Assembly (NCBI GenBank): GCA_005882765.1
Contig: VBDV01000113.1
Location: forward strand, 1-59,735
Origin: Chloroflexota bacterium
Lineage (GTDB): Bacteria; Chloroflexota; Limnocylindria; P2-11E
Length of the DNA: 59,735 nt
Direction of reading: 5' to 3'
Shown: in pieces, positions 29,453-46,009 of the stretch
Position numbering within the stretch: position 1 is the first letter of the stretch
Layout: the number at the start of each line of letters is the position of its first letter
Position numbers and translations under genes: made by a program
The notes under the pieces: model-generated
What the model was told of the DNA's origin: nothing
Databases searched by the model: none
The model's input: the letters and a program-made list of their open reading frames with translations, nothing else

Positions 29453-30658
29453 TCATCGCGACCGGTGTCCGCTGAAGCGACGCCGCTCTTTTACCTCGCG
29501 TGCACTCGCGCGATCGAGCGCGCCGTCGCCGAAACGCGAGCGAACTGCATCTAACGCGGCGTTGAGCCGCGCGTGACGGGCGGCGTCGAATAATCCGAGC
29601 TGCTCGCCCGCGGTCACGCCCGAGACCGAAACGCCGATGAGCCGGACAGGGCTGGTTCGACCGCCTTCGCGATCCTGCGCAAGGGCGTCGCGAAGGAGCT
29701 GACGCGCGGTTCGATAGATCGTGACGTCGTCATCGGTTGGTTCACGAAGCGTGCGTTGACGCGTGCGGGTTTCGAACGGCGCGACGCGGAGCGTCATGGT
29801 GATCGTCCGCCCACGGAGGGTGTGATCGCGCAGGCGGCGACCGACTCCTTCCGCAAGGCGGAGAAGCGTCGACTCGATCTTCGCCGTGTCGAGCGTGTTC
29901 GCATCGAACGTATGCGAATGTCCAACGGATTTCGGCGTGTGCTCGCTCTGGACCTCGCCCTCGTCGATCCCGTTCGCGCGCTGCCAGATGTCCGTTCCGT
30001 GCTCCCCCAGGCGCGTCTCCAAGACCGACCGGTCGAAGGCGGCGAGCTGGCCGATCGTCCGGAGATCCCACCCCGCGAGCACTTCCCGCGTCCGCGGGCC
30101 GACGCCCCAAAGCCGCTCGAGGGGGAGTGGCGCGAGGAACGCCCCCTCGCCACCGGCGGGCACGATGACAAGGCCGTCCGGCTTCCGGAGGTCGGAACCG
30201 ACTTTCGCGCAGAGCTTGTTCGTGGCGACGCCGACCGAGACGACCAGTCCGCAGCGCTCCCGGACCGCCCGCTTGATCTGCGTGGCCATCGCGACAGCGC
30301 CGCCGAATAGATGTTCGGTCGCGGTGACGTCGAGGAAGGCCTCGTCGAGGGAGATCGGTTCGACCAGCGGTGTCTGCTCCTCGAATATCGCCATGACCGC
30401 GTCCGACGCTTCGACGTAGCGATCGAAGTTACCCGGCACGTAGATCCCGTCCGGGCAGAGCCGTCCAGCGATCGCGAGCGGCATCGCGGACCGGACGCCG
30501 AAGGCGCGTGCCTCGTAGGACGCGGCCATCACCACGCCGCGTTCGTTCGGGCCGTCGCCGCCGACGATCACCGGTTTGCCGCGGTACTCGGGATGGTCGC
30601 GCTGCTCGACCGACGCGTAGAAGGCGTCCAGGTCGCAGTGCAGGATGGCGCGCGTCAT
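29453..30658 (-). CDS. dinB: DNA polymerase IV (Y-family)
   Basis: HCDLDAFYASVE, AASYEAR.FGV.SAM, SLDEAFLD, SVGVATNKLCAK, QLGLF clamp motif. Confidence 0.95.
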   Translation of the reverse strand: MTRAILHCDLDAFYASVEQRDHPEYRGKPVIVGGDGPNERGVVMAASYEARAFGVRSAMPLAIAGRLCPDGIYVPGNFDRYVEASDAVMAIFEEQTPLVEPISLDEAFLDVTATEHLFGGAVAMATQIKRAVRERCGLVVSVGVATNKLCAKVGSDLRKPDGLVIVPAGGEGAFLAPLPLERLWGVGPRTREVLAGWDLRTIGQLAAFDRSVLETRLGEHGTDIWQRANGIDEGEVQSEHTPKSVGHSHTFDANTLDTAKIESTLLRLAEGVGRRLRDHTLRGRTITMTLRVAPFETRTRQRTLREPTDDDVTIYRTARQLLRDALAQDREGGRTSPVRLIGVSVSGVTAGEQLGLFDAARHARLNAALDAVRSRFGDGALDRASAREVKERRRFSGHRSR

Positions 30659-31785
30659 GCGAACCGCACCCCCACCGTCGTCGCGTCCGGCGCCAGGAAG
30701 CGCAGAAGGTCGTGGCCCTCCGCCTCGACGGCAACGAGTTCCCGTGGCGGGAGCCGAGCGAACGGGGCGACGCGCAGGACTGCCTCGCCCTTCGCGCGGA
30801 TGAGGCCCCACGTCGCGGCAGCGAATCCATCCACCAGAACCACGGCCTCGACGATGCCGTTTTTGGCGTAAATCGCAGGCCGATGCGCCGGCGCGATCAG
30901 GCGATCCCGATGCTGGTAGGCGATGAGCAGCTCGTCGTAGCGCGGAAGGAAGCGCACCGGCGCCTTTACCGCGGAGCTGGGACGGATCGCGCGCGGCATG
31001 TCGTAAAGGATGCGCCCCGTTTCGTCCTTGAAGATCAGAAGCTTCGAGGCCGTGCCCTCGAGCGCGGGCCGCACTCGCGGCGGCGCTTGGCCCGCGAACT
31101 TCGCGACGTCAGCGAGTGTGACTGGGCCGAACGCGGAGACGCACCGACGCACGAGGATCTCGAGCGCGTCTTGCTCAGATGGTCGTTTGCCCCGTGAGAT
31201 CCAGTGGCGCGCGGCCACATAGGGAGCGTCGGTTCCGCCGTATTCCCAATGTCCGCCGGGTGGTGCGGTCACCAGATCGGCATGGGCGCTCACGAAGCGC
31301 CAGACGAGCCAGTTGAAGGGACCGCCGAGCGCTCCTCCGAGCCGCTCCCGGATGTGTTCGAGCACATCCTCCTTTGGACGGGGCGTGCGGGCGAAGGCGA
31401 TCGCCAGTGCGGCCACCTTCTTCGGGTCCACGCCCCTGCCGATCTGCAAGCGATTCCACGCGCCACGCTGGAGGTCCTGCGTCGCGACCGCGTAGGCATA
31501 GAAGTCCCGGGCCGAGACGAGATGAAGCGTGCCCCGCATGAGTCTCGCGCGGACCACGTCGTGCCGCTCGATCGCCGACCAGAGCTTCTCGCGTCGGAAG
31601 CCCGCCAGGCGCGACCAGAGTGCGATGTATGGAGAGGGCGACGATTGTGCCTGCAGTGCCGCGAGTCGCTCGATCGCGGGCACCACGCCGATGTCCGCCC
31701 GCTCGAGGAGGAGCTGTCGCGCGAGCATCGCGCGGTTGAGCTCGCGGAGCGTGAGAACGGCATGAGCGGTAGACGTCTTCGTCAT
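30655..31785 (-). CDS. AlkZ-like (HTH_42 winged-helix) DNA glycosylase
   Basis: LNRA.LARQ.LL.R, QAQ, LWSRL, RGTLHLVS, FGP....D, RFLPRYD. Confidence 0.9.
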   Translation of the reverse strand: MTKTSTAHAVLTLRELNRAMLARQLLLERADIGVVPAIERLAALQAQSSPSPYIALWSRLAGFRREKLWSAIERHDVVRARLMRGTLHLVSARDFYAYAVATQDLQRGAWNRLQIGRGVDPKKVAALAIAFARTPRPKEDVLEHIRERLGGALGGPFNWLVWRFVSAHADLVTAPPGGHWEYGGTDAPYVAARHWISRGKRPSEQDALEILVRRCVSAFGPVTLADVAKFAGQAPPRVRPALEGTASKLLIFKDETGRILYDMPRAIRPSSAVKAPVRFLPRYDELLIAYQHRDRLIAPAHRPAIYAKNGIVEAVVLVDGFAAATWGLIRAKGEAVLRVAPFARLPPRELVAVEAEGHDLLRFLAPDATTVGVRFA

Positions 31786-32900
31786 CCGCGCACTCCGTGC
31801 GTTTTGGACTGCGGCGCGTAGAAACGGACGAGCTTTTCGCCCTCCTCGGCCAGAGCAGCGCGATCGGCCCGCGCGAGCGGTTTGAAGGGCCGGAGCTCGA
31901 GTACCGCCTCCTTCGGCCGAACGGCGATCGTCCACCGGCCGGCGACGAAGCCATCGACGACGAACGTGGTCCACACCTCGGCCGAGAAGATGACCTGCTT
32001 GCGGAAAGCCTCGGGGAGGATGCGCGTCCGCTCCGGCGCGGCGTGGCCGAGTAGCGCCGCGTCGAACCGTGCGAGGAATCGCACCGGTGCAGGCACGTCG
32101 GCGGCCGGTCGCGGGGCGCTGGCGAGGTCGATCAGGTCGCGTCCGCGCTCGTCGGTGAAATGTCGCAGGTCCGTCATCCGCGCGAGGGCCGCGCGGATGT
32201 TCGGAACGCGAACGCTGCTCCATGTCGCGATGTCGGCAACAGTCGCCGGGCCGAAGGCGCCGAGATGCCGCCGCACCACGAGGTCATACGCGGCATCAGG
32301 CTTGGGGGCCTTCCTGAGCTTTGCACGCGGCGCGACGTGCCGGGCCAGTTGCCGGTGGTCGAAATGCGCTCCCGTAGCGTCCCAAATGAGTCCGCTTGTC
32401 GCGACCGCGGCCCACGTGAACCAGTTCCGGAGCCTGGGGTTCCTTGCGGCACTCGGCGGAAGGTGGGCCGCGCTGAATTCCTCGATCTCGGTGCGGGTTC
32501 GGGGGGTCTTGGCCGCGAACGTCATGACCTTCTTATGCAGCCCCTCGAGATCAGCCAGTGCGGGGCCGCCCGGCGGGCGCCACGCGCCGAAGCGGCCTTC
32601 CATCGTCGCGAGCGAGTACGCCGGATACTCGCCTGCCGAGACAAGATGCAGCGTCGCCCGCATCAGGGTCGCTTTCACGACCTGCCCGCGGTCGATAGCA
32701 CGCGTGAGCTCGTCGCGCTTGAAGCTCGCAAGACGAGACCAGAGCGCGACATACGGCGACGGCGCCCACTGACCCTGAAGGCAGCCCAGACGCTCGACCG
32801 CGTCGACCACATCGATCTTCTGGCGTTTCAGCAGGAACTGCCGCGCCAGGAGCGCGCGATTCAGCTCACGAATGGTGAGCGAGGGAACGCGTAGCGGCAT
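31782..32900 (-). CDS. AlkZ-like (HTH_42 winged-helix) DNA glycosylase, paralog
   Basis: LNRALLARQFLL, QGQ, LWSRL, RATLHLVS, FGPATVAD, RFLARFD. Confidence 0.9.
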   Translation of the reverse strand: MPLRVPSLTIRELNRALLARQFLLKRQKIDVVDAVERLGCLQGQWAPSPYVALWSRLASFKRDELTRAIDRGQVVKATLMRATLHLVSAGEYPAYSLATMEGRFGAWRPPGGPALADLEGLHKKVMTFAAKTPRTRTEIEEFSAAHLPPSAARNPRLRNWFTWAAVATSGLIWDATGAHFDHRQLARHVAPRAKLRKAPKPDAAYDLVVRRHLGAFGPATVADIATWSSVRVPNIRAALARMTDLRHFTDERGRDLIDLASAPRPAADVPAPVRFLARFDAALLGHAAPERTRILPEAFRKQVIFSAEVWTTFVVDGFVAGRWTIAVRPKEAVLELRPFKPLARADRAALAEEGEKLVRFYAPQSKTHGVRG

Positions 32901-33535: not shown

Positions 33536-33565
33536 AGGGTAACCGAACGGATGTTCAGTTGTCAA
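33536..33565 (-). promoter_or_regulatory. lexA promoter with SOS box
   Basis: TTGACA(33565-33560)-18nt-TACCCT(33541-33536), with GAAC-ggat-GTTC (33545-33556) in the spacer. Confidence 0.85.
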
Positions 33566-35003: not shown

Positions 35004-35450
35004 GTGCGCGTCATCCTCAAAGCGGAAGTCCCCGGTCTCGGCCGGACCGGTGACATCAAGGATGTCGCCGACGGCTATGCCCGCAACTACCTGCTGCCGA
35101 AGGGCCTTGCCATCGAGGCGACCGGCGGGGAGCTCAAGCATCTCGCCCAGGAACGCCAAGCCGAGCGAACGAAGAAGGATCGCGCGCATCAGGACGCCGA
35201 GGAGCTCGCGAGTCGTCTCGCCGAGGTCACGCTTGTGTTCCGGCTCAAGGCGGGGGAGCACGGAAAGACGTTCGGTAGCGTGACCGCAAAGGAGGTGGCC
35301 GAGGCTCTGAAGAAAGAGGCGAAGGCCGAGATCGACAAGACCAAGATCGTCCTCCACGAGCCGCTCCGGTCGCTCGGTATCCACAAGGTCGAGGTGCGTC
35401 TCCTGGCGGACGTCCGAGCTGACGTGACGATCGCGATCGAGCCGGCCTAG
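35004..35450 (+). CDS. rplI: 50S ribosomal protein bL9
   Basis: MRVIL...LG..GDI.DVADGYARNYLLP, FGSVT, LGIH. Confidence 0.97.
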   Translation: MRVILKAEVPGLGRTGDIKDVADGYARNYLLPKGLAIEATGGELKHLAQERQAERTKKDRAHQDAEELASRLAEVTLVFRLKAGEHGKTFGSVTAKEVAEALKKEAKAEIDKTKIVLHEPLRSLGIHKVEVRLLADVRADVTIAIEPA

Positions 35451-35453
35451 GCC

Positions 35454-37496
35454 GTGGCCCAAGCGCTTCGCCGGCCGGGGGTGCGCCTCGTCCTGACCAG
35501 CGCGACGCTGCTCTTTGTCGAGCTGGTGCTCCTGCGCTGGATCCCAGCCAACGTGACGTACATCGGTTTCTTCTCCAACTTCCTCTTGATGGCGAGCTTC
35601 CTCGGTATCGGCGTCGGGATCCTCTTCGGACGGCGTCTCGCGAACGCCGCGTGGTCACCCTTCCCGTTGCTGCTTCTGCTCGTCGTCGCCCTGATCCTCG
35701 GCGCGAAGCTGGACGTGCAGATCCGCGCGAGCGACGAGATCTTCTTCGGACTCGCGGAGAGCCACGCGGCCGACACGAACTTCCTGGTGCTCCCGCTCGT
35801 CTTCGTCCTCGTCGCCGCGGTGATGGGCGCGCTCGCGCTGCCGCTCGGCTCGCTCCTCCGCTCGATGCCCCCTCTCCGCGCGTACGCCCTCGATATCGCA
35901 GGGTCGATCGGCGGCATCGCGCTCTTTGTGGGCCTCTCCGTCCTGAGCTTGCAGCCGCCGGTCTGGTTCGGCGTCCTCGGAGCCCTGCTGGCCGGCCGCG
36001 CGCTCGCGTATCCGCTGAGCCGCTTCTCCATCGTCAACGGCGCATTCGTCATCGCGACCTGCGGACTCGTGATCGGCGCGACGGCCAGTGGCGATCTCTG
36101 GTCTCCCTACTACCGGATCAGCGTGCAGCGCCCGGCGGGATCGGATGCGACGATCTCGGTGAACGGGATCCCGCACCAGGCGATGCATGCGGTAGACATC
36201 GACCCGCCCGCGGCCGAGCCCTTCTACGATCAGATCTACCAGTGGTTTCCGGGCCGGAGCTTCGGGCACGCGCTCGTCGTCGGCGCCGGAAGCGGGACGG
36301 ACACGGCGTATGCCCTCGCCAACAAGGTCCAGGCCATCGACGCCGTGGAGATCGACCCGCGCATCCTGGAGCTTGGCGAGCGCGAGCATCCCAATCATCC
36401 GTACTCCGACCCGCGCGTCCGCGAGTACGTCGACGACGGGCGCGCATTCCTTCGGTCCAGCGGGGATCGCTACGACCTGATCGTGTTCGCCCTTCCCGAC
36501 TCGCTGACGCTCGTGAGCACGAGCGCGAACGTCCGCCTGGAGTCCTTTCTCTTTACGCGCGAGGCGTTCGCGAGCGCGCGCGACCACCTCGCGCCGAACG
36601 GCGTGTTCGTCCTCTACAACTACTACCGGCAGCCGTGGCTCCTCGCGAAGATCGAGGGAATGCTGACGGACGTCTTTGGGACCGAGCCGCTGGTGCGCGA
36701 GTACGACGCTCCGATTGGTTCCGCGGCGGTGCTCGCGGCGAGCCCCGGCGACCTTCAGGTGTCGGGTCAGGCGGCGCTCCTGAGCGCGGCGATCGCGAAC
36801 GACCGACCTGCCGCCGCGACGGATGACTGGCCCTTCCTCTATCTACGCGATCGTGTGATCGCGCCCTACTACATCCTTGCGCTCATCTTCGTCCTTCTGG
36901 TCGCCGGCATAGCGACCGTGCTCGCCGCGCGCCTCGTGTCCGCACCGATTGCGGCGTTCAGTCCGCACTTCTTCCTCCTCGGCGCGGCGTTCCTACTCCT
37001 CGAAACCCGGAGCCTCACCATGTTCAGCCTTCTGTTCGGCACGACCTGGACGGTCAACGCGATGGCCTTCGCGGCGATCCTTACCAGCGTGCTGCTCGCG
37101 ATCGGCGTGAACGCGATGACGAAGCCGCCGCGCGCGGTGCTCTACTCGGGTCTTGGGGTCACGCTCGTCATCGCGTATGTGCTCCCACCGTCGGCGCTGC
37201 TCTTCGATCCGGCGTGGCTCCGCTACCTCGCGGCGGCGGTTATCGCTTTTGCCCCGGTGTTCTTCGCGAACCTCGTGTTCACGGCGTCGTTCCGAGAAAC
37301 GCGGACCGCCGACATGGCGTTCGCCTCGAATCTCATCGGCGCGATGATCGGCGGCGTCCTCGAGTACGCCGCGCTCGTCACGGGTTACCAGGCGCTCCTG
37401 ATCATCATCGCCGCTCTCTACGTGGCGGCGTATCTCGCGGGTTCACGCGTCCGGCTCTTGGCGGATCGCCGCCTGGTCACGGCCGAGCCGGCTTAG
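35454..37496 (+). CDS. Membrane-embedded spermidine synthase-like SAM-dependent protein
   Basis: N- and C-terminal TM bundles around VVGAGSGTD, VEIDP, DDGRAF, ATDDWPFLY. Confidence 0.85.
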   Translation: MAQALRRPGVRLVLTSATLLFVELVLLRWIPANVTYIGFFSNFLLMASFLGIGVGILFGRRLANAAWSPFPLLLLLVVALILGAKLDVQIRASDEIFFGLAESHAADTNFLVLPLVFVLVAAVMGALALPLGSLLRSMPPLRAYALDIAGSIGGIALFVGLSVLSLQPPVWFGVLGALLAGRALAYPLSRFSIVNGAFVIATCGLVIGATASGDLWSPYYRISVQRPAGSDATISVNGIPHQAMHAVDIDPPAAEPFYDQIYQWFPGRSFGHALVVGAGSGTDTAYALANKVQAIDAVEIDPRILELGEREHPNHPYSDPRVREYVDDGRAFLRSSGDRYDLIVFALPDSLTLVSTSANVRLESFLFTREAFASARDHLAPNGVFVLYNYYRQPWLLAKIEGMLTDVFGTEPLVREYDAPIGSAAVLAASPGDLQVSGQAALLSAAIANDRPAAATDDWPFLYLRDRVIAPYYILALIFVLLVAGIATVLAARLVSAPIAAFSPHFFLLGAAFLLLETRSLTMFSLLFGTTWTVNAMAFAAILTSVLLAIGVNAMTKPPRAVLYSGLGVTLVIAYVLPPSALLFDPAWLRYLAAAVIAFAPVFFANLVFTASFRETRTADMAFASNLIGAMIGGVLEYAALVTGYQALLIIIAALYVAAYLAGSRVRLLADRRLVTAEPA

Positions 37497-38821
37497 ACGA
37501 CTTCGCGCGTCTCGCCGAGGTCGCGGAACCGGGTGAGGTCGGACTGGAAGTGAAGGTCGAAGTCGCCGGTCGGTCCGTTGCGATGTTTCGCGAGCTTGAG
37601 GCGGACGACACTCTCTTCGCGGTCCTTCCGGTCCTTTTGCCAAAGGAACAGGACGAGATCGGCGTCCGCCTCGAGGGCGCCGCTCTCTCTGAGGTCAGAG
37701 AGCATCGGCTCGGTCCCACGCTGCTCGATCTGCCGCGAGAGCTGCGAGATCGCGATCACCGGGACCTCGAGCTCGCGCGCGATCGCCTTCAGCGCGCGGC
37801 TGATACGGGCGACCTCCAGGACGCGACTCTCTTCGTTCCCCACGCCTTCGATGAGCTGCAGGTAGTCGATCACGACCAGGTCCAGGCCGCGCTCGGCCTG
37901 GAGGCGGCGCGATTTCGCGAGGATGTCGGTGACCGTCAGGCGGCTCGACTCCTCCACGAAGATCGGCGCCTGCTGTAGCTCGCTCGACGCCGCGGAGATC
38001 GCGGTGAACTCCTGCGTGGAGAGGCGACCGCGGCGCATGCGGTTGCCGTCGATCTCCGCGAGCATCGACACAAGGCGCTGGACCACCTGCATCTCGCTCA
38101 TCTCCATCGAGAAGAACGCGCATGTCTTCCGCTGCACGACCGCCGCATGCTCGACGACGTTCAGCGCGAGGCTCGTCTTGCCGAGACCCGGACGGCCCGC
38201 GATGAGGATGAGATCAGAGGCCTGGAGTCCACCGGTCTTCTTGTCGACCGACTCGATGCCCGTCCGAATCCCGAGGCGCATGTCGCCACGCGCGTCGATT
38301 TGCTCGGCGTAGCGGCGGAGCGCGACGTCCAGAGGGACGATGTCCCGATGGAGCGTCGATTCGCTCACCGCGAACAGCAGCTCCTGCGCGTCCGACACCG
38401 CGGCGGCCGATTCCTCGCGGGTCAGCGCGAGACGGGCGATCTCGTTGGCCACCCCGATCAGCCGACGAAGGAGCGCGGTGCGTTCGACGATCGCCGCGTA
38501 GCTCGACGCGTGCGCGACCGTCGGCACGTTCTGCATGAGGCCGACCAGGAACTGCGAGCCCCCGATCGCATCGAGCTCAGCGTGCGCGACGAGGTCCGAC
38601 TGCACGTTGGCGAACCCCACTTGCTCGCTGCGCTCGGCGACGCGGGCGATGGCCGCGAGCACGATCCGATGCTGCTCGCGTGACAGGTCCGCAGGCCCGA
38701 GGCGTCCGCGCGCGACCTCGTTGTAGAGGGCGCCGTCCATGAGCATCGCGCCGAGGAGCGATGCCTCGGCCTCGGGCTTCTCTGGCGGCGGCTTGACGCC
38801 GCGGTCGGTCTGCACCGTCAT
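37493..38821 (-). CDS. dnaB: Replicative helicase DnaB paralog 2
   Basis: N-terminal EAEASLLG, GRPGLGKT, SMEM, DYLQL, SQLSR, LRESG, KHRNGP; ATGA-coupled to paralog 1. Confidence 0.93.
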   Translation of the reverse strand: MTVQTDRGVKPPPEKPEAEASLLGAMLMDGALYNEVARGRLGPADLSREQHRIVLAAIARVAERSEQVGFANVQSDLVAHAELDAIGGSQFLVGLMQNVPTVAHASSYAAIVERTALLRRLIGVANEIARLALTREESAAAVSDAQELLFAVSESTLHRDIVPLDVALRRYAEQIDARGDMRLGIRTGIESVDKKTGGLQASDLILIAGRPGLGKTSLALNVVEHAAVVQRKTCAFFSMEMSEMQVVQRLVSMLAEIDGNRMRRGRLSTQEFTAISAASSELQQAPIFVEESSRLTVTDILAKSRRLQAERGLDLVVIDYLQLIEGVGNEESRVLEVARISRALKAIARELEVPVIAISQLSRQIEQRGTEPMLSDLRESGALEADADLVLFLWQKDRKDREESVVRLKLAKHRNGPTGDFDLHFQSDLTRFRDLGETREVV

Positions 38822-41403
38822 GCCGGCGGGCCGCCCTCGTCGGAGGCTTTGGAGAAGAACTTCGCCTGCTCGCTCTCGAAGAGGAGCTGGAATCCGCCGG
38901 TCGGACCATTGCGGTTCTTCGCGACGGAACCGTTGATGAGCCGCGGCGCGCCCGCCGGCGTCTCCTCGCGGTCGCGCCACAGCATGATCACGATGTCGGC
39001 ATCCTGCTCCAGCGCGCCCGAGTTGTGGCTCACGATTCCGTCCGCCAGCCAGCACGAGGTGTCGGGGACGGTAAGGTCGTACACGAGTTGCTCGCCATCA
39101 GCTACAACGTCGATCACCTCGTCCCAGAAGAGATCGTTTGTGGCAAGACCCATCAGCGCGGAATCTTCGAGGAGCACCGCGTACGTCGCTAGATGCGGCC
39201 GCGAAGGTGAGAACGTGAAGTGCCCGTTCCCGCTGTGTGAGGTTCCGCGGAGGCGCGCCATTTCGCGAGTTGTGATCTCTCGGTCACGCATCCGTCCGCG
39301 AACAAGAGCAAACACCTCGCGCGGAATGGTGTCGACATTCGTGTTCGGGGCGATGCCCGCTGTCGCGGCCATCACCGCGGCTGCGGGCTCCACCCGAGGC
39401 CCGAAGGTGCCGATGAGCTCGATGAATCGTCTCTGAGCTTCGGTCCCAGAAACGTGGACTTGGTAGCCGGGAAGATATCCCGCCTCTTCGACCCGCACCG
39501 TTCTCGTGACAATGTCGAACCGCAGGAGCAGCGCTGCGACGTCGCCGGCGAGTCCGATGCTGTTCGTCGCGTAATACACGCTGTGACCCCCGCCACCTTT
39601 GTGGACGCTAATCGATCCGTCTGTCGCCCAGAGGTGTCGCAGCAGGATTGCGAGTTGCTTGTTTGCCAGACGGAACGCATCGCATGGCACACGCTTCTGA
39701 TATGAGCGTTGGCCGAAAATGCCGAGATCGCGAAGCCATGCATTCACGCCGGCGGGATGCCAGCGATTCCCATTTCCGCTAATGAGTAGTTGGTGCCAAT
39801 TGCCGACCTCCAAATAGCGAGTCACTTTGGCGCCGAACTCGTTGATCGCAGCCGCGGCGACGAAGCGGCTGTTCTCCTCCGAACTTGTCGTATACCGCAT
39901 CGGCGCGCCTTTGATGTAGCTTCCGTCTCCGATCATCTGGCCAAGAAGGCCGACTCTTTCGCTTGGCCACTCGGTGATCGATTTGGGTTCGGGGAGTCGC
40001 CGCGCGATGGCAAGTCGGTCGCCGGTCGTCAGATCGCGAACGTGACGCCATCCTGCGAACGCCCGAAGCCGATGGTCGGCTGTAGCGCGGATGGATCGGC
40101 CGCTCGTGAGACGCACTCTGAAAACTGGCCGTCGACCGACTGCCCAAATCTTCTCGGTTCGCGCGGTCACGATGCGGTCGTTTTCGACCGAGAGAACCTC
40201 TGGGCAGGTACCGACGAGTTCGGAGATGGGCACGCGGCGTCCATCCGCGAGACAAACGATGGTGTCTCCGGTCACGCATTCGCGAAGGGTGGAGAGCTTG
40301 GGCTCCCCGCCCGAGTCTCCGGCGGCGCGTGATAGTTGCGAGAGACCAATGATGACCACTCCGAGCTCGCGGGCCAATGACTTCAGATTCCTCGTGATCG
40401 TCGCGATCTCTTGAACGCGGTTCTCCTCGTCGCCGCCGCCTCGAACGAGTTGCAGGTAGTCGACGATGATGACTTCGATCTTCTCGTGCGTGCTCGCGCG
40501 GCGGGCCTTCGTTCGCAGCTCCATGATCGAGATGCCCGGCGTGTCGTCGATGAACACGGGCAAGCCGTGCAGGGCCGCGGCGGCATCCGTGTCGATGATG
40601 TTCCCGGTCCGGAGCGCGAGCAGGTCCATGCGCGAGTTCAGCGCGAGGTAGCGCGAGACGATCTGCTTCGCGTCCATTTCCAGCGAGAAGAGCAACACCG
40701 GGTGGCCGCGGCGTGCGACGTTGAAGCTCATCCCGAGCGCGAGGCTCGTCTTGCCGACGGACGGCCGGGCGGCGAGGACGATGAGGTCGCCGACGGTGAA
40801 CCCTTCGGTGTAGTAGTCGACCTCGCGGAACCCTGACGGGATCCCGCTCACCTCGAACGGGCGCTCCATGCGGTCGGTGAGGTGCTCGTAGTTGGACTGC
40901 AGCGAGGCGGTGATGTGACGGAGCTGTGCATTTGCCGACTCGTCTCGAAGCGCGAAGAGTCGCTGCTCGGCGCGGTCGAGCGCGAGGGCGATGTCGGTCG
41001 GTTCGTCGTACGCATCCGCCGCGATCGACGTGGCCGCACCGAGCAGGCGCCGCAAGATCGCCCGGTCGCGGACGATGTGGCCGTAGCGGTCGATCTCGGC
41101 CGCTGTCGGAACGCCATCCGCGAGTGCGCGGAGGTAGGCCTGGCCGCCCGCTCGGTCGAGCTCCTCGCGCCGGGAGAGCTCCATCTGGATGGTGAGCGGA
41201 TCGATCCGCTCACGCCGTTCGAGAAGGGCCTGGGCCGCGTCGTAGATCCGCTGGTGCCGCGCGATGTAAAAATCATCGACGCGGAGCAGGTCCGCGACCT
41301 TGAAGATGGCATCACGGTCGATGAGGAGGCTTCCGAGTACCTGCTGTTCCGCGCTCTCGTCGAACGGGACCTGCCGGTCGGGCGCGCGAGTCTCGACGGT
41401 CAT
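38818..41403 (-). CDS. dnaB: Replicative helicase DnaB paralog 1, intein-containing
   Basis: AEQQVLG, ARPSVGKT, SLEM, DYLQL, SQLSR, LRE|intein|SGALEQDAD, KNRNGP. Confidence 0.95.
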   Translation of the reverse strand: MTVETRAPDRQVPFDESAEQQVLGSLLIDRDAIFKVADLLRVDDFYIARHQRIYDAAQALLERRERIDPLTIQMELSRREELDRAGGQAYLRALADGVPTAAEIDRYGHIVRDRAILRRLLGAATSIAADAYDEPTDIALALDRAEQRLFALRDESANAQLRHITASLQSNYEHLTDRMERPFEVSGIPSGFREVDYYTEGFTVGDLIVLAARPSVGKTSLALGMSFNVARRGHPVLLFSLEMDAKQIVSRYLALNSRMDLLALRTGNIIDTDAAAALHGLPVFIDDTPGISIMELRTKARRASTHEKIEVIIVDYLQLVRGGGDEENRVQEIATITRNLKSLARELGVVIIGLSQLSRAAGDSGGEPKLSTLRECVTGDTIVCLADGRRVPISELVGTCPEVLSVENDRIVTARTEKIWAVGRRPVFRVRLTSGRSIRATADHRLRAFAGWRHVRDLTTGDRLAIARRLPEPKSITEWPSERVGLLGQMIGDGSYIKGAPMRYTTSSEENSRFVAAAAINEFGAKVTRYLEVGNWHQLLISGNGNRWHPAGVNAWLRDLGIFGQRSYQKRVPCDAFRLANKQLAILLRHLWATDGSISVHKGGGGHSVYYATNSIGLAGDVAALLLRFDIVTRTVRVEEAGYLPGYQVHVSGTEAQRRFIELIGTFGPRVEPAAAVMAATAGIAPNTNVDTIPREVFALVRGRMRDREITTREMARLRGTSHSGNGHFTFSPSRPHLATYAVLLEDSALMGLATNDLFWDEVIDVVADGEQLVYDLTVPDTSCWLADGIVSHNSGALEQDADIVIMLWRDREETPAGAPRLINGSVAKNRNGPTGGFQLLFESEQAKFFSKASDEGGPPA
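39022..40278 (-). mobile_element. Intein with LAGLIDADG homing endonuclease (419 aa)
   Basis: Starts CVTGD, block B TADH, LLGQMIGDG and LLRHLWATDG motifs, ends VYDLTV...SHN before Ser+1. Confidence 0.95.
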
Positions 41404-41409
41404 GCGGGA

Positions 41410-41428
41410 AGTCTAGAACACGCGTTCT
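41410..41428 (-). promoter_or_regulatory. SOS box abutting a leaderless -10 element of the dnaB operon
   Basis: AGAAC-acgc-GTTCT (41415-41428); TAGACT (41415-41410) lies 6 nt before the ATG. Confidence 0.75.
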
Positions 41429-41581
41429 AATGGCCGAAGAGCGTACGCGCGCAGGCCGTGAAAGGCCGGTAGACCACTAGAACGCTGTTCTGTCGGCATG
41501 AGTCACATCCGAACTGGCTGCCCGGCGGAAGCTCGCCCGACAATTCCTCTTTAGCTGACATTGGGCATGACGGCTAGCAAT

Positions 41582-41646
41582 TCGTCCACCATCTTCTCCA
41601 CCAACTCATCCACGATTGCTCCACCAGTTTTCGCGAACGTGGACAA
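41582..41646. promoter_or_regulatory. DnaA-box-like array
   Basis: TCGTCCACC 41582, TTCTCCACC 41594, TCATCCACG 41606, TGCTCCACC 41617, inverted TTGTCCACG 41646-41638. Confidence 0.5.
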
Positions 41647-41682
41647 CGAAGCGGATCTTCATTGCGTAGTCTCGGCACTGTC

Positions 41683-42594
41683 TTGCATGTTCTTGTGACC
41701 GGCGGCGCGGGATTCCTCGGCAGCCATGTGGTCGATGCGCTCCTCAAGGCCGGCGACGACGTCGTGGTGGTGGACGATCTCTCGACGGGAGATCGCGCGA
41801 ATCTCGATCCGCGCGCCGAACTGCGCATCGCCGATATCGCCGACCTCTCGGCGCTTCAGCGCGAGCTCGGCAGCCGACGGATCGATGCGGTCGTGCATTG
41901 CGCTGCGAAGACCAAGGTCGTCGAATCGATGACGAAGAAGGACCTCTACGAGCGCGTGATCGTCGGCGGGACGCGGAACGTGATCGAGACCACGCGACGG
42001 CTCGGCGCGTCGATCGTCGTGAATATCTCCACCGGTGGGGCGATCTACGGCGAAACGCCAATCTGTGCCGACGAGAACGTCCCGGTCGATCCGCAATCGA
42101 ACTACGGCAGATTCAAGGCTGCGGCGGAAAAGCTCGTCGAACTGTCCGACCTTCGGGCGGTGACCCTTCGGCTTGCGAACATCTACGGTCCACGCCAGCG
42201 CACCGATCTCGAGGGCGGCGTGATCGCCATCTTCCTCGGCTGCTGGAAACGGGGCGAGCCGATCACCCTGTTCGGCGATGGCAGCTACGAGCGTGACTTC
42301 GTGTATGTCGCGGACGTCGTCGAGGCCGTACTCGCGGCGCTTGCCGGGACATACGCGGGCATCTTCAACATCGGCACCGGCATTGCGACGAGCGTGAATG
42401 AGCTCGTCTCGGCGTTCAGCATGATCCTCGGACCCCCACCCAGCGTGCGCCAGGCGCCAGCGCGTCCAGCCGAGGTGTTGCGTGCCTGTGTGAACCCGAC
42501 GAAAGCGGCGCGGGAGGGACTCTGGCGTCCAACGACCGCGCTGGCCGAAGGACTCCGGCGCACGGCGGCCGCTGAAGGAGTCTTGTTGGCGTAA
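41683..42594 (+). CDS. NAD-dependent epimerase/dehydratase (GalE-like)
   Basis: VTGGAGFLGS, STGGAIYG, YGRFK, RLANIYGP, RDFVYV. Confidence 0.93.
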   Translation: MHVLVTGGAGFLGSHVVDALLKAGDDVVVVDDLSTGDRANLDPRAELRIADIADLSALQRELGSRRIDAVVHCAAKTKVVESMTKKDLYERVIVGGTRNVIETTRRLGASIVVNISTGGAIYGETPICADENVPVDPQSNYGRFKAAAEKLVELSDLRAVTLRLANIYGPRQRTDLEGGVIAIFLGCWKRGEPITLFGDGSYERDFVYVADVVEAVLAALAGTYAGIFNIGTGIATSVNELVSAFSMILGPPPSVRQAPARPAEVLRACVNPTKAAREGLWRPTTALAEGLRRTAAAEGVLLA

Positions 42595-44153: not shown

Positions 44154-44735
44154 GTGAGGCGCTTTCTTCTTGGCTTCCTTTTCGGCGCGTTCTCGATCGT
44201 CGCCCTCCTCGTCGGGGTGGGGCACTGGCTTGACCTGAGCGATCCCCTCGGGCACGCCGACGCCATCGTCGCCATTTCCGGCGACACCGGTGCGCGGGCC
44301 GAGAGCGCGATCGCGCTCTGGAAGCAGGGATATGCGCCGGTCCTCATCTTCTCCGGCGGCTCCAGCGACCCCGAATCAGTCGCGTCCGCCGAGCTGATGA
44401 AACGGGCGGCGGTCGCGGCGGGGGTGCCGGCGAACGCGATCATCGTTGAGGGCTCGTCGGCGACGACCGAGGAGAACGCTCAGCGGGTCGCCGAGCTCAT
44501 GAAGACCGCCGGCCTCCGTTCGGCGATCCTTGTCACCAGTCCTTATCACCAGCGCCGGGCCGCTCTCCTGTTCGAGCGCGAGTTCGACCGCGCCGGGTTG
44601 TCGTTTCGAAATCATCCCGCGGACGATCCGGATTGGGATGCGAACCTCTGGTGGACCAGCGAACCATCGCGCAGCCTGACCCTTGTCGAGCTCGCGAAGC
44701 TCGGAGCCCTGGTCGCGGGGCAGCACCCGGGATAG
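44154..44735 (+). CDS. YdcF/DUF218 family protein
   Basis: ADAIVAISG, FSGG, TEENA, LVTSPYHQRRA. Confidence 0.88.
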   Translation: MRRFLLGFLFGAFSIVALLVGVGHWLDLSDPLGHADAIVAISGDTGARAESAIALWKQGYAPVLIFSGGSSDPESVASAELMKRAAVAAGVPANAIIVEGSSATTEENAQRVAELMKTAGLRSAILVTSPYHQRRAALLFEREFDRAGLSFRNHPADDPDWDANLWWTSEPSRSLTLVELAKLGALVAGQHPG

Positions 44736-44746
44736 CATTCGAATAC

Positions 44747-46009
44747 GTGCCGGTGACGGCCATCGTCGGTGCTCAGTGGGGCGACGAGGGCAAAGGGAAG
44801 ATCACTGACCTCCTGGCGCAGGAGGCGGATGTGGTCATCCGATTCCAGGGCGGAAACAATGCCGGCCACACCGTCGTCAACCAGCACGGCACCTTCAAGC
44901 TTCATCTCGTGCCGAGTGGAATATTCAATCCCGATGCGGTTTGCGTTCTCGGTCCCGGGTGCGTCGTCGATCTCGCGTTCCTCTGTCGCGAGCTCGCTGA
45001 GCTCGAGAAGAGCGGGATCTCCACCGCGAACCTGCGCGTAAGCGACCGCGCGCATCTCGTCATGCCGTGGCACATCGCGCTCGACCGTCTGGATGAGCGC
45101 GAGCGCGGCCGGAGGAAGCTCGGCACGACCGGGATGGGCGTGGGGCCCGCGTACTCGGACAAAGTCGGCCGTCACGGCATCCAGGCATACGAAGTGCGCG
45201 ATGTGAAGAGCTTCCGCGCGCGCGTGAAGCGAGAGCTCGAGACGAAGAACGCGATACTCGAGCGGTTCGGTGACGCCCCTCTTGATGCGACGGAGGTGGC
45301 CGACGGTGTTCTCGCCGCCGCGGCGAAGCTCGGTGACCGCATTGTCGACACGCTTCCCCTCGTCGAATCCGCGCTTGCCAAAGACGCGCGCGTCCTGCTG
45401 GAAGGGCAGCTTGGCGCGATGCGCGATCTCGATTGGGGCATCTACCCGTACGTGACCAGCTCGAATCCGCTCGCCGGCGGCGCGAGCGTCGGGGCCGGGA
45501 TCCCGCCGCGCAAGATCACGCGCGTCATCGGGGTCGTGAAGGCGTATTCGACCGCCGTGGGCGAGGGTCCCTTTCCGACCGAGCTCCGTGGCGACGAGGC
45601 CACCGCGCTCCGCGAGCGTGCCCATGAATACGGCGCGACCACCGGGCGTCCGCGGCGCGTCGGCTGGTTCGATGCCGTCGCGGCGCGGCATGCGCACCGG
45701 CTCAACGCCTTCACCGAGCTCGCCGTGACGAAGCTCGACGTCCTGGACGTCTACGACCGCATACCGTTTTGCGCGAGCTACGAGCTCGACGGGAAGCGCA
45801 CGACGGACATGCCGACGACCCTTGTGCTCGAGAAAGCTCGTCCGTGCTACGAGACCCTCGAGGGCTGGTCGACTGATATCACGGGAGTGACTGAGCGTCG
45901 AGCGCTACCGGCGAGGGCCGTCGCGTACCTGGATCGGATCGCGGTAACGGTCGGCGCCCCCGTCGGAATGATCGGCGTTGGACCCGAGAGGGCGGCGACC
46001 CTCCTCTAA
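44747..46009 (+). CDS. purA: Adenylosuccinate synthetase
   Basis: GAQWGDEGKGK, GGNNAGHT, YPYVTSS, TTGRPRR, TKLDVL. Confidence 0.97.
   Translation: MPVTAIVGAQWGDEGKGKITDLLAQEADVVIRFQGGNNAGHTVVNQHGTFKLHLVPSGIFNPDAVCVLGPGCVVDLAFLCRELAELEKSGISTANLRVSDRAHLVMPWHIALDRLDERERGRRKLGTTGMGVGPAYSDKVGRHGIQAYEVRDVKSFRARVKRELETKNAILERFGDAPLDATEVADGVLAAAAKLGDRIVDTLPLVESALAKDARVLLEGQLGAMRDLDWGIYPYVTSSNPLAGGASVGAGIPPRKITRVIGVVKAYSTAVGEGPFPTELRGDEATALRERAHEYGATTGRPRRVGWFDAVAARHAHRLNAFTELAVTKLDVLDVYDRIPFCASYELDGKRTTDMPTTLVLEKARPCYETLEGWSTDITGVTERRALPARAVAYLDRIAVTVGAPVGMIGVGPERAATLL

Follow-up and report, generated by a model that had tools for sequence, protein, structure and literature searches.

Bacterial DnaB is the textbook single-gene homohexamer, and rings assembled from paralogues are seen as a hallmark of the eukaryotic MCM2-7 helicase. 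What, then, is to be made of a bacterial chromosome on which two dnaB genes lie head to tail – and do their products share one ring or form two? The locus in question is found on contig VBDV01000113.1 (GenBank assembly GCA_005882765.1) of a Chloroflexota bacterium; the whole stretch analysed, 59,735 nucleotides (nt) long, is called the window, and positions are given in its numbering unless a contig is named. We refer to the upstream gene as P1 and to the downstream gene as P2. An initial description, made from the letters of this DNA (hereafter the sequence-only reading), had presented them as an operon of two diverged, translationally coupled helicases, and as candidates for a heteromeric ring, a stress-specialised helicase or a helicase with a regulatory paralogue. 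As set out below, the pair is the lineage's only replicative-helicase locus, fixed across its order, and two dnaB genes here replace the usual one. Relative to its first statement, the observation has become stronger on distribution and weaker on 'complementarity' between the paralogues, and its interpretation is partly supported.

Two dnaB genes in place of one

P1 is followed directly by P2, whose ATG overlaps the TGA of P1 so that the coding strand reads ATGA (coordinates in Table 1). Both proteins match the two DnaB families of Pfam above the curated cut-offs: the N-terminal domain (PF00772) scores 101.8 bits in P1 and 63.2 bits in P2, and the C-terminal domain (DnaB_C, PF03796) 235.8 bits in P1, where it is found in two stretches, and 299.6 bits in P2. 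Both also retain the Walker A GKT, FS(L/M)EM, DY(L/I)QL, SQLSR, RE-SG and K-x-R-N-G motifs, so that each shows the complete set of features by which the family is recognised – two domains, Walker A, the catalytic Glu, Walker B, the SQL Gln sensor, the RESG loop and the K-x-R finger. Against solved DnaB chains, P2 scores 316 bits and an intein-less P1 orthologue 322 bits. The two paralogues are 34% identical over 385 amino acids (aa), the first 385 residues, while their identity to the single-copy DnaBs of the class is 43-48% for P1 and 41-46% for P2. The overlap, the retained motifs and the strong divergence had all been correctly recognised in the sequence-only reading. Its description of two full-length DnaBs also stands insofar as both domains are present in each, but it overlooked the 419-aa intein that interrupts the RESG loop of P1 and brings this protein to 861 aa.

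The genome containing the window is a metagenome-assembled genome (MAG) of 2.75 Mb in 195 contigs, 87% complete. In a DnaB_C search of this MAG, P1 and P2 were the only DnaB genes, accompanied by a 21.9-bit match on contig C140; the copy count that had been set beforehand as a check thus revealed no separate canonical dnaB. The pair is no peculiarity of one genome, either. The order to which it belongs is the Candidatus Limnocylindria lineage of the Chloroflexota, with related contigs mostly from soil, and we surveyed 94 of its genomes – including the unpublished G011, G021, G045, G068 and G088 – for DnaB_C matches at E<=1e-30. At least two matches were found in 80 of the 94, one in eight and none in six; six genomes had three. 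Without the five unpublished genomes, the share with at least two is 75/89. All 14 genomes with fewer than two matches are fragmented drafts (120 to 490 contigs, 58-91% complete), and the sole one among them that is at least 90% complete, G058, has its single match at a contig end. The near-complete, few-contig relatives G005, G044 and G054 have two matches each. The tandem order, P1 then P2, is seen in 59 of 64 related loci, the remaining five being cut by contig ends, and orthologues of P1 and P2 are 54-98% identical across the order.

Outside the order, a single dnaB is the rule. A search at E<=1e-50 gave one match in 33 of 34 genomes from the class's sister families, G031 being the odd one out. 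The 265 other high-quality Chloroflexota genomes divide into 243 with one match, 18 with at least two and four with none (this count includes the unpublished G131, G252, G255 and G347, with one match each). DnaG, DciA and DnaA have a single match each, and there is therefore no sign of two parallel helicase systems. As the only DnaBs present, P1 and P2 must also serve normal replication.

The phylogeny was inferred from 80 rows: 10 of the 59 pairs together with the window's own, 14 single-copy DnaBs of the class, 40 of 114 length-filtered library representatives, the extra copy of G031 and three enterobacterial outgroup sequences. P1 and P2 each form one clade with 100% support in the Shimodaira–Hasegawa-like approximate likelihood ratio test (SH-aLRT), on long stems of 0.57 and 0.64, and the branching order within the two clades is broadly alike, with G025 (family f2) deepest in each. 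The two lineage-wide clades expected by the sequence-only reading were thus recovered, and the pair is confined neither to one genome nor to a prophage. The P1 clade is sister to the class's single-copy DnaBs (support 93, not starred), and P2 falls just outside. In a 35-row subset, the tree in which P1 and P2 are forced into one clade is worse by 3.17 log-likelihood units (p = 0.218 in the approximately unbiased test, p-AU), so that a single clade of the two is not rejected. A duplication in the order's ancestor would be compatible with these data, if not proven by them.

Both copies are under strong and similar constraint. Thirteen orthologue pairs were compared, and for the 10 with a synonymous distance (dS) below 0.75 the ratio of non-synonymous to synonymous distances (dN/dS) is 0.03-0.13 in both paralogues, indicating strong purifying selection, with dN nearly equal in P1 and P2. 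Catalytic positions (Walker A/B, catalytic Glu, Gln sensor, RESG and K-x-R finger) are 98-100% conserved across 59 P1 and 59 P2 orthologues. Elsewhere, the two have moved apart. Among 125 canonical DnaBs, 85 positions reach a conservation of at least 85%; P1 departs from the consensus at nine of these (Y107H, Q203T, L317I, P350V, A353G, E362G, R364S, D372T and F807M) and P2 at eight (F46L, Y47S, D69G, D290E, D291E, L347I, Q385A and R395Q), with none in common. Within the P1 clade, E362G and D372T each reach a frequency of 98% and R364S 47%; in the P2 clade, Q385A reaches 93%. The divergence is, moreover, reciprocal by domain: Pfam scores for the N- and C-terminal domains are 115-124 and 342-354 bits in single-copy DnaBs, 103 and 254 bits in P1, and 67-72 and 299-305 bits in P2.

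Several observations from these surveys deserve mention in their own right. The extra full-length DnaB of G031 (L082, G031:C16:11700-13900) sits on an end branch of 1.88, is 31-33% identical to P1 and P2, and is possibly of mobile-element origin. A weak full-length DnaB_C match of 82-95 bits was obtained for an open reading frame (ORF) of ~370-490 aa in each of the sister families f3 and f4 (L088 on G028:C1 and L089 on G031:C23 among them); the two such ORFs scanned against Pfam lack the DnaB N-terminal domain, and no ORF of this type was matched in the order carrying the pair. Finally, four contigs encoding a P2 with 71-96% identity to that of the window (L006, L008, L028 and L049) carry the labels Bathyarchaeia, Udaeobacter, Acidiferrales and Saccharimonadales, and look like mis-binned or mislabelled MAG records.

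Predicted shared control, and an intein in P1

The stop/start overlap of the two genes is as conserved as the genes themselves: an NTGA junction (ATGA, GTGA or TTGA) is found in 58 of the 59 loci holding both, and it is because of this conservation that the start of P2 is assigned at 38819-38821. The coupled-expression signal noticed earlier in the window is thus a property of the lineage. We infer that it represents conserved translational coupling, from which near-equimolar amounts of P1 and P2 would be expected.

Upstream of P1 lies a second conserved element, a palindrome of the form GAAC-N4-GTTC, known as the LexA motif of Gram-positive bacteria and of Dehalococcoides. An exact copy is present in 58/58 P1 upstream regions, at -18 to -52 in 57 of them and at -128 in G025; its consensus is TnGAACnnnnGTTCTAnAnT, and outside it the intergenic region shows little conservation. 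Across loci, the box is abutted by a TAnAnT consensus, a -10-like hexamer with a probable promoter role. In L038, L041 and L085, TTGACA (a -35 element) stands 17-18 nt before this hexamer, and the palindrome therefore fills the promoter spacer. The short distance from the hexamer to the ATG suggests a leaderless or near-leaderless P1 transcript. No box precedes P2, and none was found within 400 nt upstream of the single-copy dnaB in any of 14 sister-family genes (0/14); the operator therefore appears together with the duplication.

The same motif marks lexA itself, a conserved neighbour of the pair: each of the 49 related loci with a lexA gene has it 26-33 nt before that gene. In the window genome, boxes also occur near ORF starts of lexA (20 nt upstream), uvrB (15 nt), a 1124-aa DnaE-type polymerase (38 nt) and an MrfA-like helicase (17 nt), and further boxes precede a 237-aa RecA-fold ImuA-like ORF, an ATP-dependent ligase fragment, a radical-SAM ORF and two ORFs without a Pfam match. 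Besides lexA's own box, the predicted SOS box sites are C139:4649, C147:1762 and 8632, C112:5927/5960, C5:1440/1460, C61:9556, C62:9048 and C28:18939. Through the operator motif shared with lexA, the P1–P2 operon is predicted to belong to the LexA (SOS) regulon, with LexA binding and induction by DNA damage as the corresponding predictions.

A second input is suggested by DnaA-box-like 9-mers and GGTGGA repeats located ~110-250 nt upstream of P1 (region 41404-41661 in the window). Of 58 P1 upstream regions, 46 contain at least one 9-mer within one mismatch of TGTGGACAA, the density across the genome being 0.074 per kb – counts that overstate the support, the relatives not being independent – and this suggests that DnaA also acts on the operon. 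The region was also considered as the chromosomal origin, oriC, and rejected as such: in the window it holds one 9-mer within one mismatch, and the strongest DnaA-box cluster of the genome lies beside dnaA on contig C68. That cluster, five boxes in 200 bp at C68:9238-9434, just after dnaA and ~2.3 kb before the DciA gene, is likely to be oriC.

In the window, P1 carries one more potential layer of control. The insert between LSTLRE and SGALEQDAD bears the marks of an intein – Cys1 (CVTGD...), a TADH block, two LAGLIDADG motifs, a terminal HN and Ser at +1 (...VSHN|S) – and matches Intein_splicing (PF14890) with 65 bits and LAGLIDADG_3 (PF14528) with 66.8 bits. It thus combines a HINT domain with a LAGLIDADG homing endonuclease, excises cleanly when aligned with intein-less orthologues, and is predicted to splice; the RESG loop of the window's P1 would be complete only after this predicted protein splicing. 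The intein-less P1 orthologue of a related MAG, L007, is 442 aa long and 96% identical over the exteins. Inserts of 175-423 aa occupy one shared site (LRE|C...HN|SG) in 15 of 59 P1 and 4 of 59 P2 orthologues, including mini-inteins of 175-202 aa, and locus L057 has inteins in both genes. Apart from the window, the intein-bearing loci are L018, L024, L030, L031, L034, L037, L039, L040, L042, L043, L055-L057, L060, L062, L065 and L083. Two sister-family single-copy DnaBs (L086 and L087) harbour an intein two residues downstream of this site (RESG|C...HN|SIEQ).

Table 1. Features of the dnaB locus and its surroundings, in window positions
Feature	Position	Strand	Details
P1, dnaB paralogue precursor, 861 aa including intein	38818-41403	minus	ORF and translation; Pfam; stop TGA at 38818-38820
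P1 N-extein, residues 1-375	40279-41403	minus	N-terminal domain, linker, Walker A/B, SQLSR; last residues LSTLRE
P1 intein, residues 376-794, 419 aa	39022-40278	minus	Pfam; boundaries from alignment with intein-less orthologues
P1 C-extein	38821-39021	minus	SGALEQDAD ... KNRNGPTG ... end
ATGA stop/start overlap of P1 and P2	38818-38821	minus	Sequence; translational coupling signal
P2, dnaB paralogue, 442 aa	37493-38821	minus	Translation; Pfam; ATG at 38819-38821
-10-like hexamer TAGACT	41410-41415	minus	Abuts the operator; ends 6 nt before the P1 ATG
Predicted LexA operator, palindrome GAACGCGTGTTC	41416-41427		12 nt upstream of the P1 ATG
DnaA-box-like 9-mer (1 mismatch), then GGTGGA repeats	41638-41646		P1 upstream intergenic region
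lexA, 203 aa	32913-33524	minus	Pfam LexA_DNA_bind and Peptidase_S24; ~4 kb from the pair
lexA's own box	33545-33556
rplI	35004-35450	plus
Spermidine-synthase-like ORF, 680 aa	35454-37496	plus	After rplI; P2 converges on it
NAD-dependent epimerase gene	41662-42594	plus	Divergent from P1
purA	44633-46009	plus

Past the epimerase gene lie a DUF218 gene, purA, guaB and guaA. The sequence-only reading had pointed to rplI and purA as usual neighbours of chromosomal dnaB; both are indeed nearby, but rplI runs in the opposite direction to the pair, with ~2 kb between it and the end of P2, and there is no classical rplI-dnaB operon. It had also seen no phage genes at the flanks, in agreement with our Pfam scan, in which none of the flanking ORFs covered matched a phage-type family and several had no match at all. 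Directly downstream of lexA, on the same strand, are two ORFs with AlkZ-like DNA glycosylase domains (30655-32900, minus), which make this a DNA-repair neighbourhood.

One ring or two

The reading we favour, with a probability of roughly 0.45, is that of a mixed DnaB ring made up of P1 and P2 and controlled by LexA. The operon would, on this account, encode two old, diverged and catalytically intact DnaB paralogues, P1 then P2, transcribed from a promoter with a LexA-type operator in its spacer/-10 region and DnaA-box-like sites farther upstream; basal expression would serve replication, and DNA damage would raise it. P2 would be translated by ATGA coupling to P1, giving near-equimolar amounts, and in the window P1 would become a helicase once intein splicing had rejoined the RE|SG DNA-binding loop. 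The two proteins would then co-assemble in one ring, plausibly alternating 3:3, with a 'trimer of dimers' collar in which each N-terminal hairpin dimer is a P1–P2 pair, and with all six ATP sites active. We rank this reading first because P1 and P2 are the only DnaBs, are both intact, equally constrained and coupled, have not been seen lost in any well-assembled genome, and are accompanied by a single match each for DnaG, DciA and DnaA. The earlier proposal of a stress-specialised helicase is retained in part: the conserved operator before P1 speaks for it, but normal replication also falls to these two proteins.

A structural model was obtained for the dimer of L007 P1 and L007 P2, which are 96% identical to the window's proteins. 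It scores 0.61, against 0.00 for the best control, with runs agreeing in at least 84% of contacts and a partner predicted local distance difference test (pLDDT) value of at least 78; of 80 solved complexes, 58 attained the mark, as did 2 of 110 mismatched pairs. In the model, residues 112-156 of both chains, the hairpin, are in contact, and the P2 linker (161-171) packs on the P1 C-terminal domain (245-252 and 278-286), an arrangement that equals the packing of solved DnaB homohexamers (hairpin dimer plus linker helix). The heteromeric ring of the sequence-only reading thus gains a P1–P2 model that passes its controls, but such a pass can reflect DnaB homohexamers, and the ring is still a proposal.

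A number of points weigh against the mixed ring or against the LexA control assumed for it, and they are best considered together. As modelled, the pair indicates likeness and compatibility rather than a preference for a mixed ring, and the model's pass can stem from the solved DnaB homohexamers (2r6a, 4esv, 6bbm and others). The 'complementary deviations' put forward earlier are real and clade-fixed – save for P1 R364S, at only 47% – but had to be rejected as evidence, since zero overlap between nine and eight positions among 85 has a hypergeometric probability of 0.39 and carries no signal beyond chance. Charge complementarity was sought in the net charges of the N-terminal head, hairpin, linker and C-terminal domain, and was found in none of them. 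The Walker motifs and the arginine finger are intact in both paralogues, with no half-site degeneration of the kind seen in some obligate hetero-rings. Tight coupling is not universal, as in G025 (family f2), the junction exception, a spacer of ~240 nt separates P1 from P2. As to the operator, exact GAAC-N4-GTTC occurs 29 times in the genome, where composition alone predicts 26, and so shows no enrichment; no box precedes recA in the ~70 nt that the contig end leaves of its upstream region; and the predicted assignment of the box to LexA is made from its position and conservation. The genome itself is an incomplete MAG. Above all, nothing here separates a mixed ring from two homohexamers.

More tentative is a stricter version, in which the alternating 3:3 ring is obligate: the two conformers of the collar would have been frozen into two genes, P1 keeping the ancestral collar surface and P2 the ancestral motor. 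LexA and DnaA would jointly set the amount of this ring, and in some genomes intein splicing would act as a gate.

The strongest competitor, unlikely though we hold it to be, is a division of labour between two separate homohexamers, one acting, for example, at oriC via DnaA and DciA and the other in fork restart or repair, with the operon serving co-regulation only. Since all catalytic motifs are present in each protein, either could work alone; the LexA operator points to a damage-linked role, the differing domain-level divergence could reflect different partners, and the genes do not overlap in G025. Divided labour would, however, favour separate regulation, yet there is one boxed promoter region for both genes and no box before P2, and elsewhere the stop/start overlap has been kept. 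Also against it are the single matches for DnaG, DciA and DnaA, the nearly equal dN of the two paralogues, and the finding that genomes short of two matches are mostly fragmented, G058 having its single match at a contig end.

Alternatively, one paralogue could be the working helicase and the other an accessory subunit for assembly, loading or braking that binds the ring or controllably poisons it. This view can draw on the loss, in P1, of three near-invariant residues beside the DNA-binding loop (E362G, R364S and D372T), on the weakened N-terminal domain of P2 (F46L, Y47S and D69G; 63-72 bits in Pfam against 115-124) and on the intein that gates one of the two in some genomes. We nonetheless consider it quite improbable: catalytic positions are almost invariant in both clades, purifying selection is equally strong over the whole length of both proteins, and inteins are found in either gene, as would be expected if both were needed. 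A paralogue acting as helicase loader is made unnecessary by the DciA gene on C68 near dnaA. The regulatory paralogue of the sequence-only reading is weakened on the same grounds, all catalytic residues being kept in both under equal selection.

Extra bacterial dnaB copies are usually derived from phages or plasmids, and P2 does fall just outside the clade of P1 and the class's single-copy DnaBs in the free tree; the notion that one copy is a captured phage or plasmid DnaB, or a recent redundant duplicate being lost, is nevertheless largely refuted by the housekeeping flanks (epimerase, DUF218, purA, guaB, guaA, rplI and lexA), by co-inheritance across the order at 54-98% identity under dN/dS of 0.03-0.13, and by best matches in a phage collection of <=40% identity for both P1 and P2, below the 41-48% shared with single-copy DnaBs of the class (the search covered phage but not plasmid records), so that neither a mobile context, nor a patchy distribution, nor close mobile relatives were seen.

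Comparison with known helicase systems

Our literature search found no paper on a chromosomal co-conserved DnaB pair, a heteromeric DnaB or a Limnocylindria DnaB, subscription journals and supplements being outside its reach. If the 3:3 P1–P2 ring proves true, it would be, to our knowledge, the first heteromeric replicative helicase in bacteria, and an abundant soil lineage with paired dnaB genes would offer a natural bacterial system in which to see how a homomeric ring motor turns heteromeric. The pair also bears on whether the two collar conformers need different sequences, and on how DnaG and DciA would read a mixed ring. With an operator of LexA type that is perfectly conserved, it ranks among the clearest predictions of a replicative helicase under SOS control. 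P1 and P2 are small, without cofactors and expressible in Escherichia coli, and the question of the mixed ring is thus directly testable.

The closest known relatives of P1 and P2 are the canonical homohexameric DnaBs – Geobacillus stearothermophilus (2r6a/4esv), G. kaustophilus (2vye) and E. coli (6bbm) – with which they share the two-domain architecture and the catalytic motifs. Canonical DnaB, however, comes from one gene. Here two genes overlap in an operon kept throughout the order, and their products are 34% identical to each other, against 41-48% between either of them and its closest single-copy DnaBs.

Phages, plasmids and phytoplasma mobile units can likewise provide a cell with an additional protein of the DnaB family, and Ban of phage P1, which reportedly forms mixed oligomers with E. 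coli DnaB, is a precedent for co-assembly. Unlike these mobile accessory DnaBs, our two paralogues are both chromosomal, are the only copies and are inherited together across the order, with no more than 40% identity to phage proteins.

For damage control of a replicative helicase, the nearest parallel is Mycobacterium. The dnaB promoter of M. tuberculosis is described as containing a LexA-binding motif, and the gene as damage-inducible in a partly RecA-dependent manner (PMC3381160, PMC8151990); the DnaB inteins of M. smegmatis have been proposed to be stress sensors (PMC6195587). Mycobacterium differs in having a single dnaB and another LexA motif, and in belonging to another phylum; here, the operator is perfectly conserved and, to judge from the sister-family genes, came with the duplication.

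Hetero-oligomeric ring helicases made from paralogues are found in eukaryotes, as MCM2-7, and in archaea with multiple MCM genes. There, too, paralogues of one ring subunit have been retained, with the ATPase fold kept in all, which makes the likeness to P1 and P2 a functional analogy. The differences are equally clear, and we claim no membership of that group: MCM proteins belong to the AAA+ superfamily and DnaB to the RecA type, P1 and P2 are only two paralogues, and their co-assembly is, for now, a proposal.

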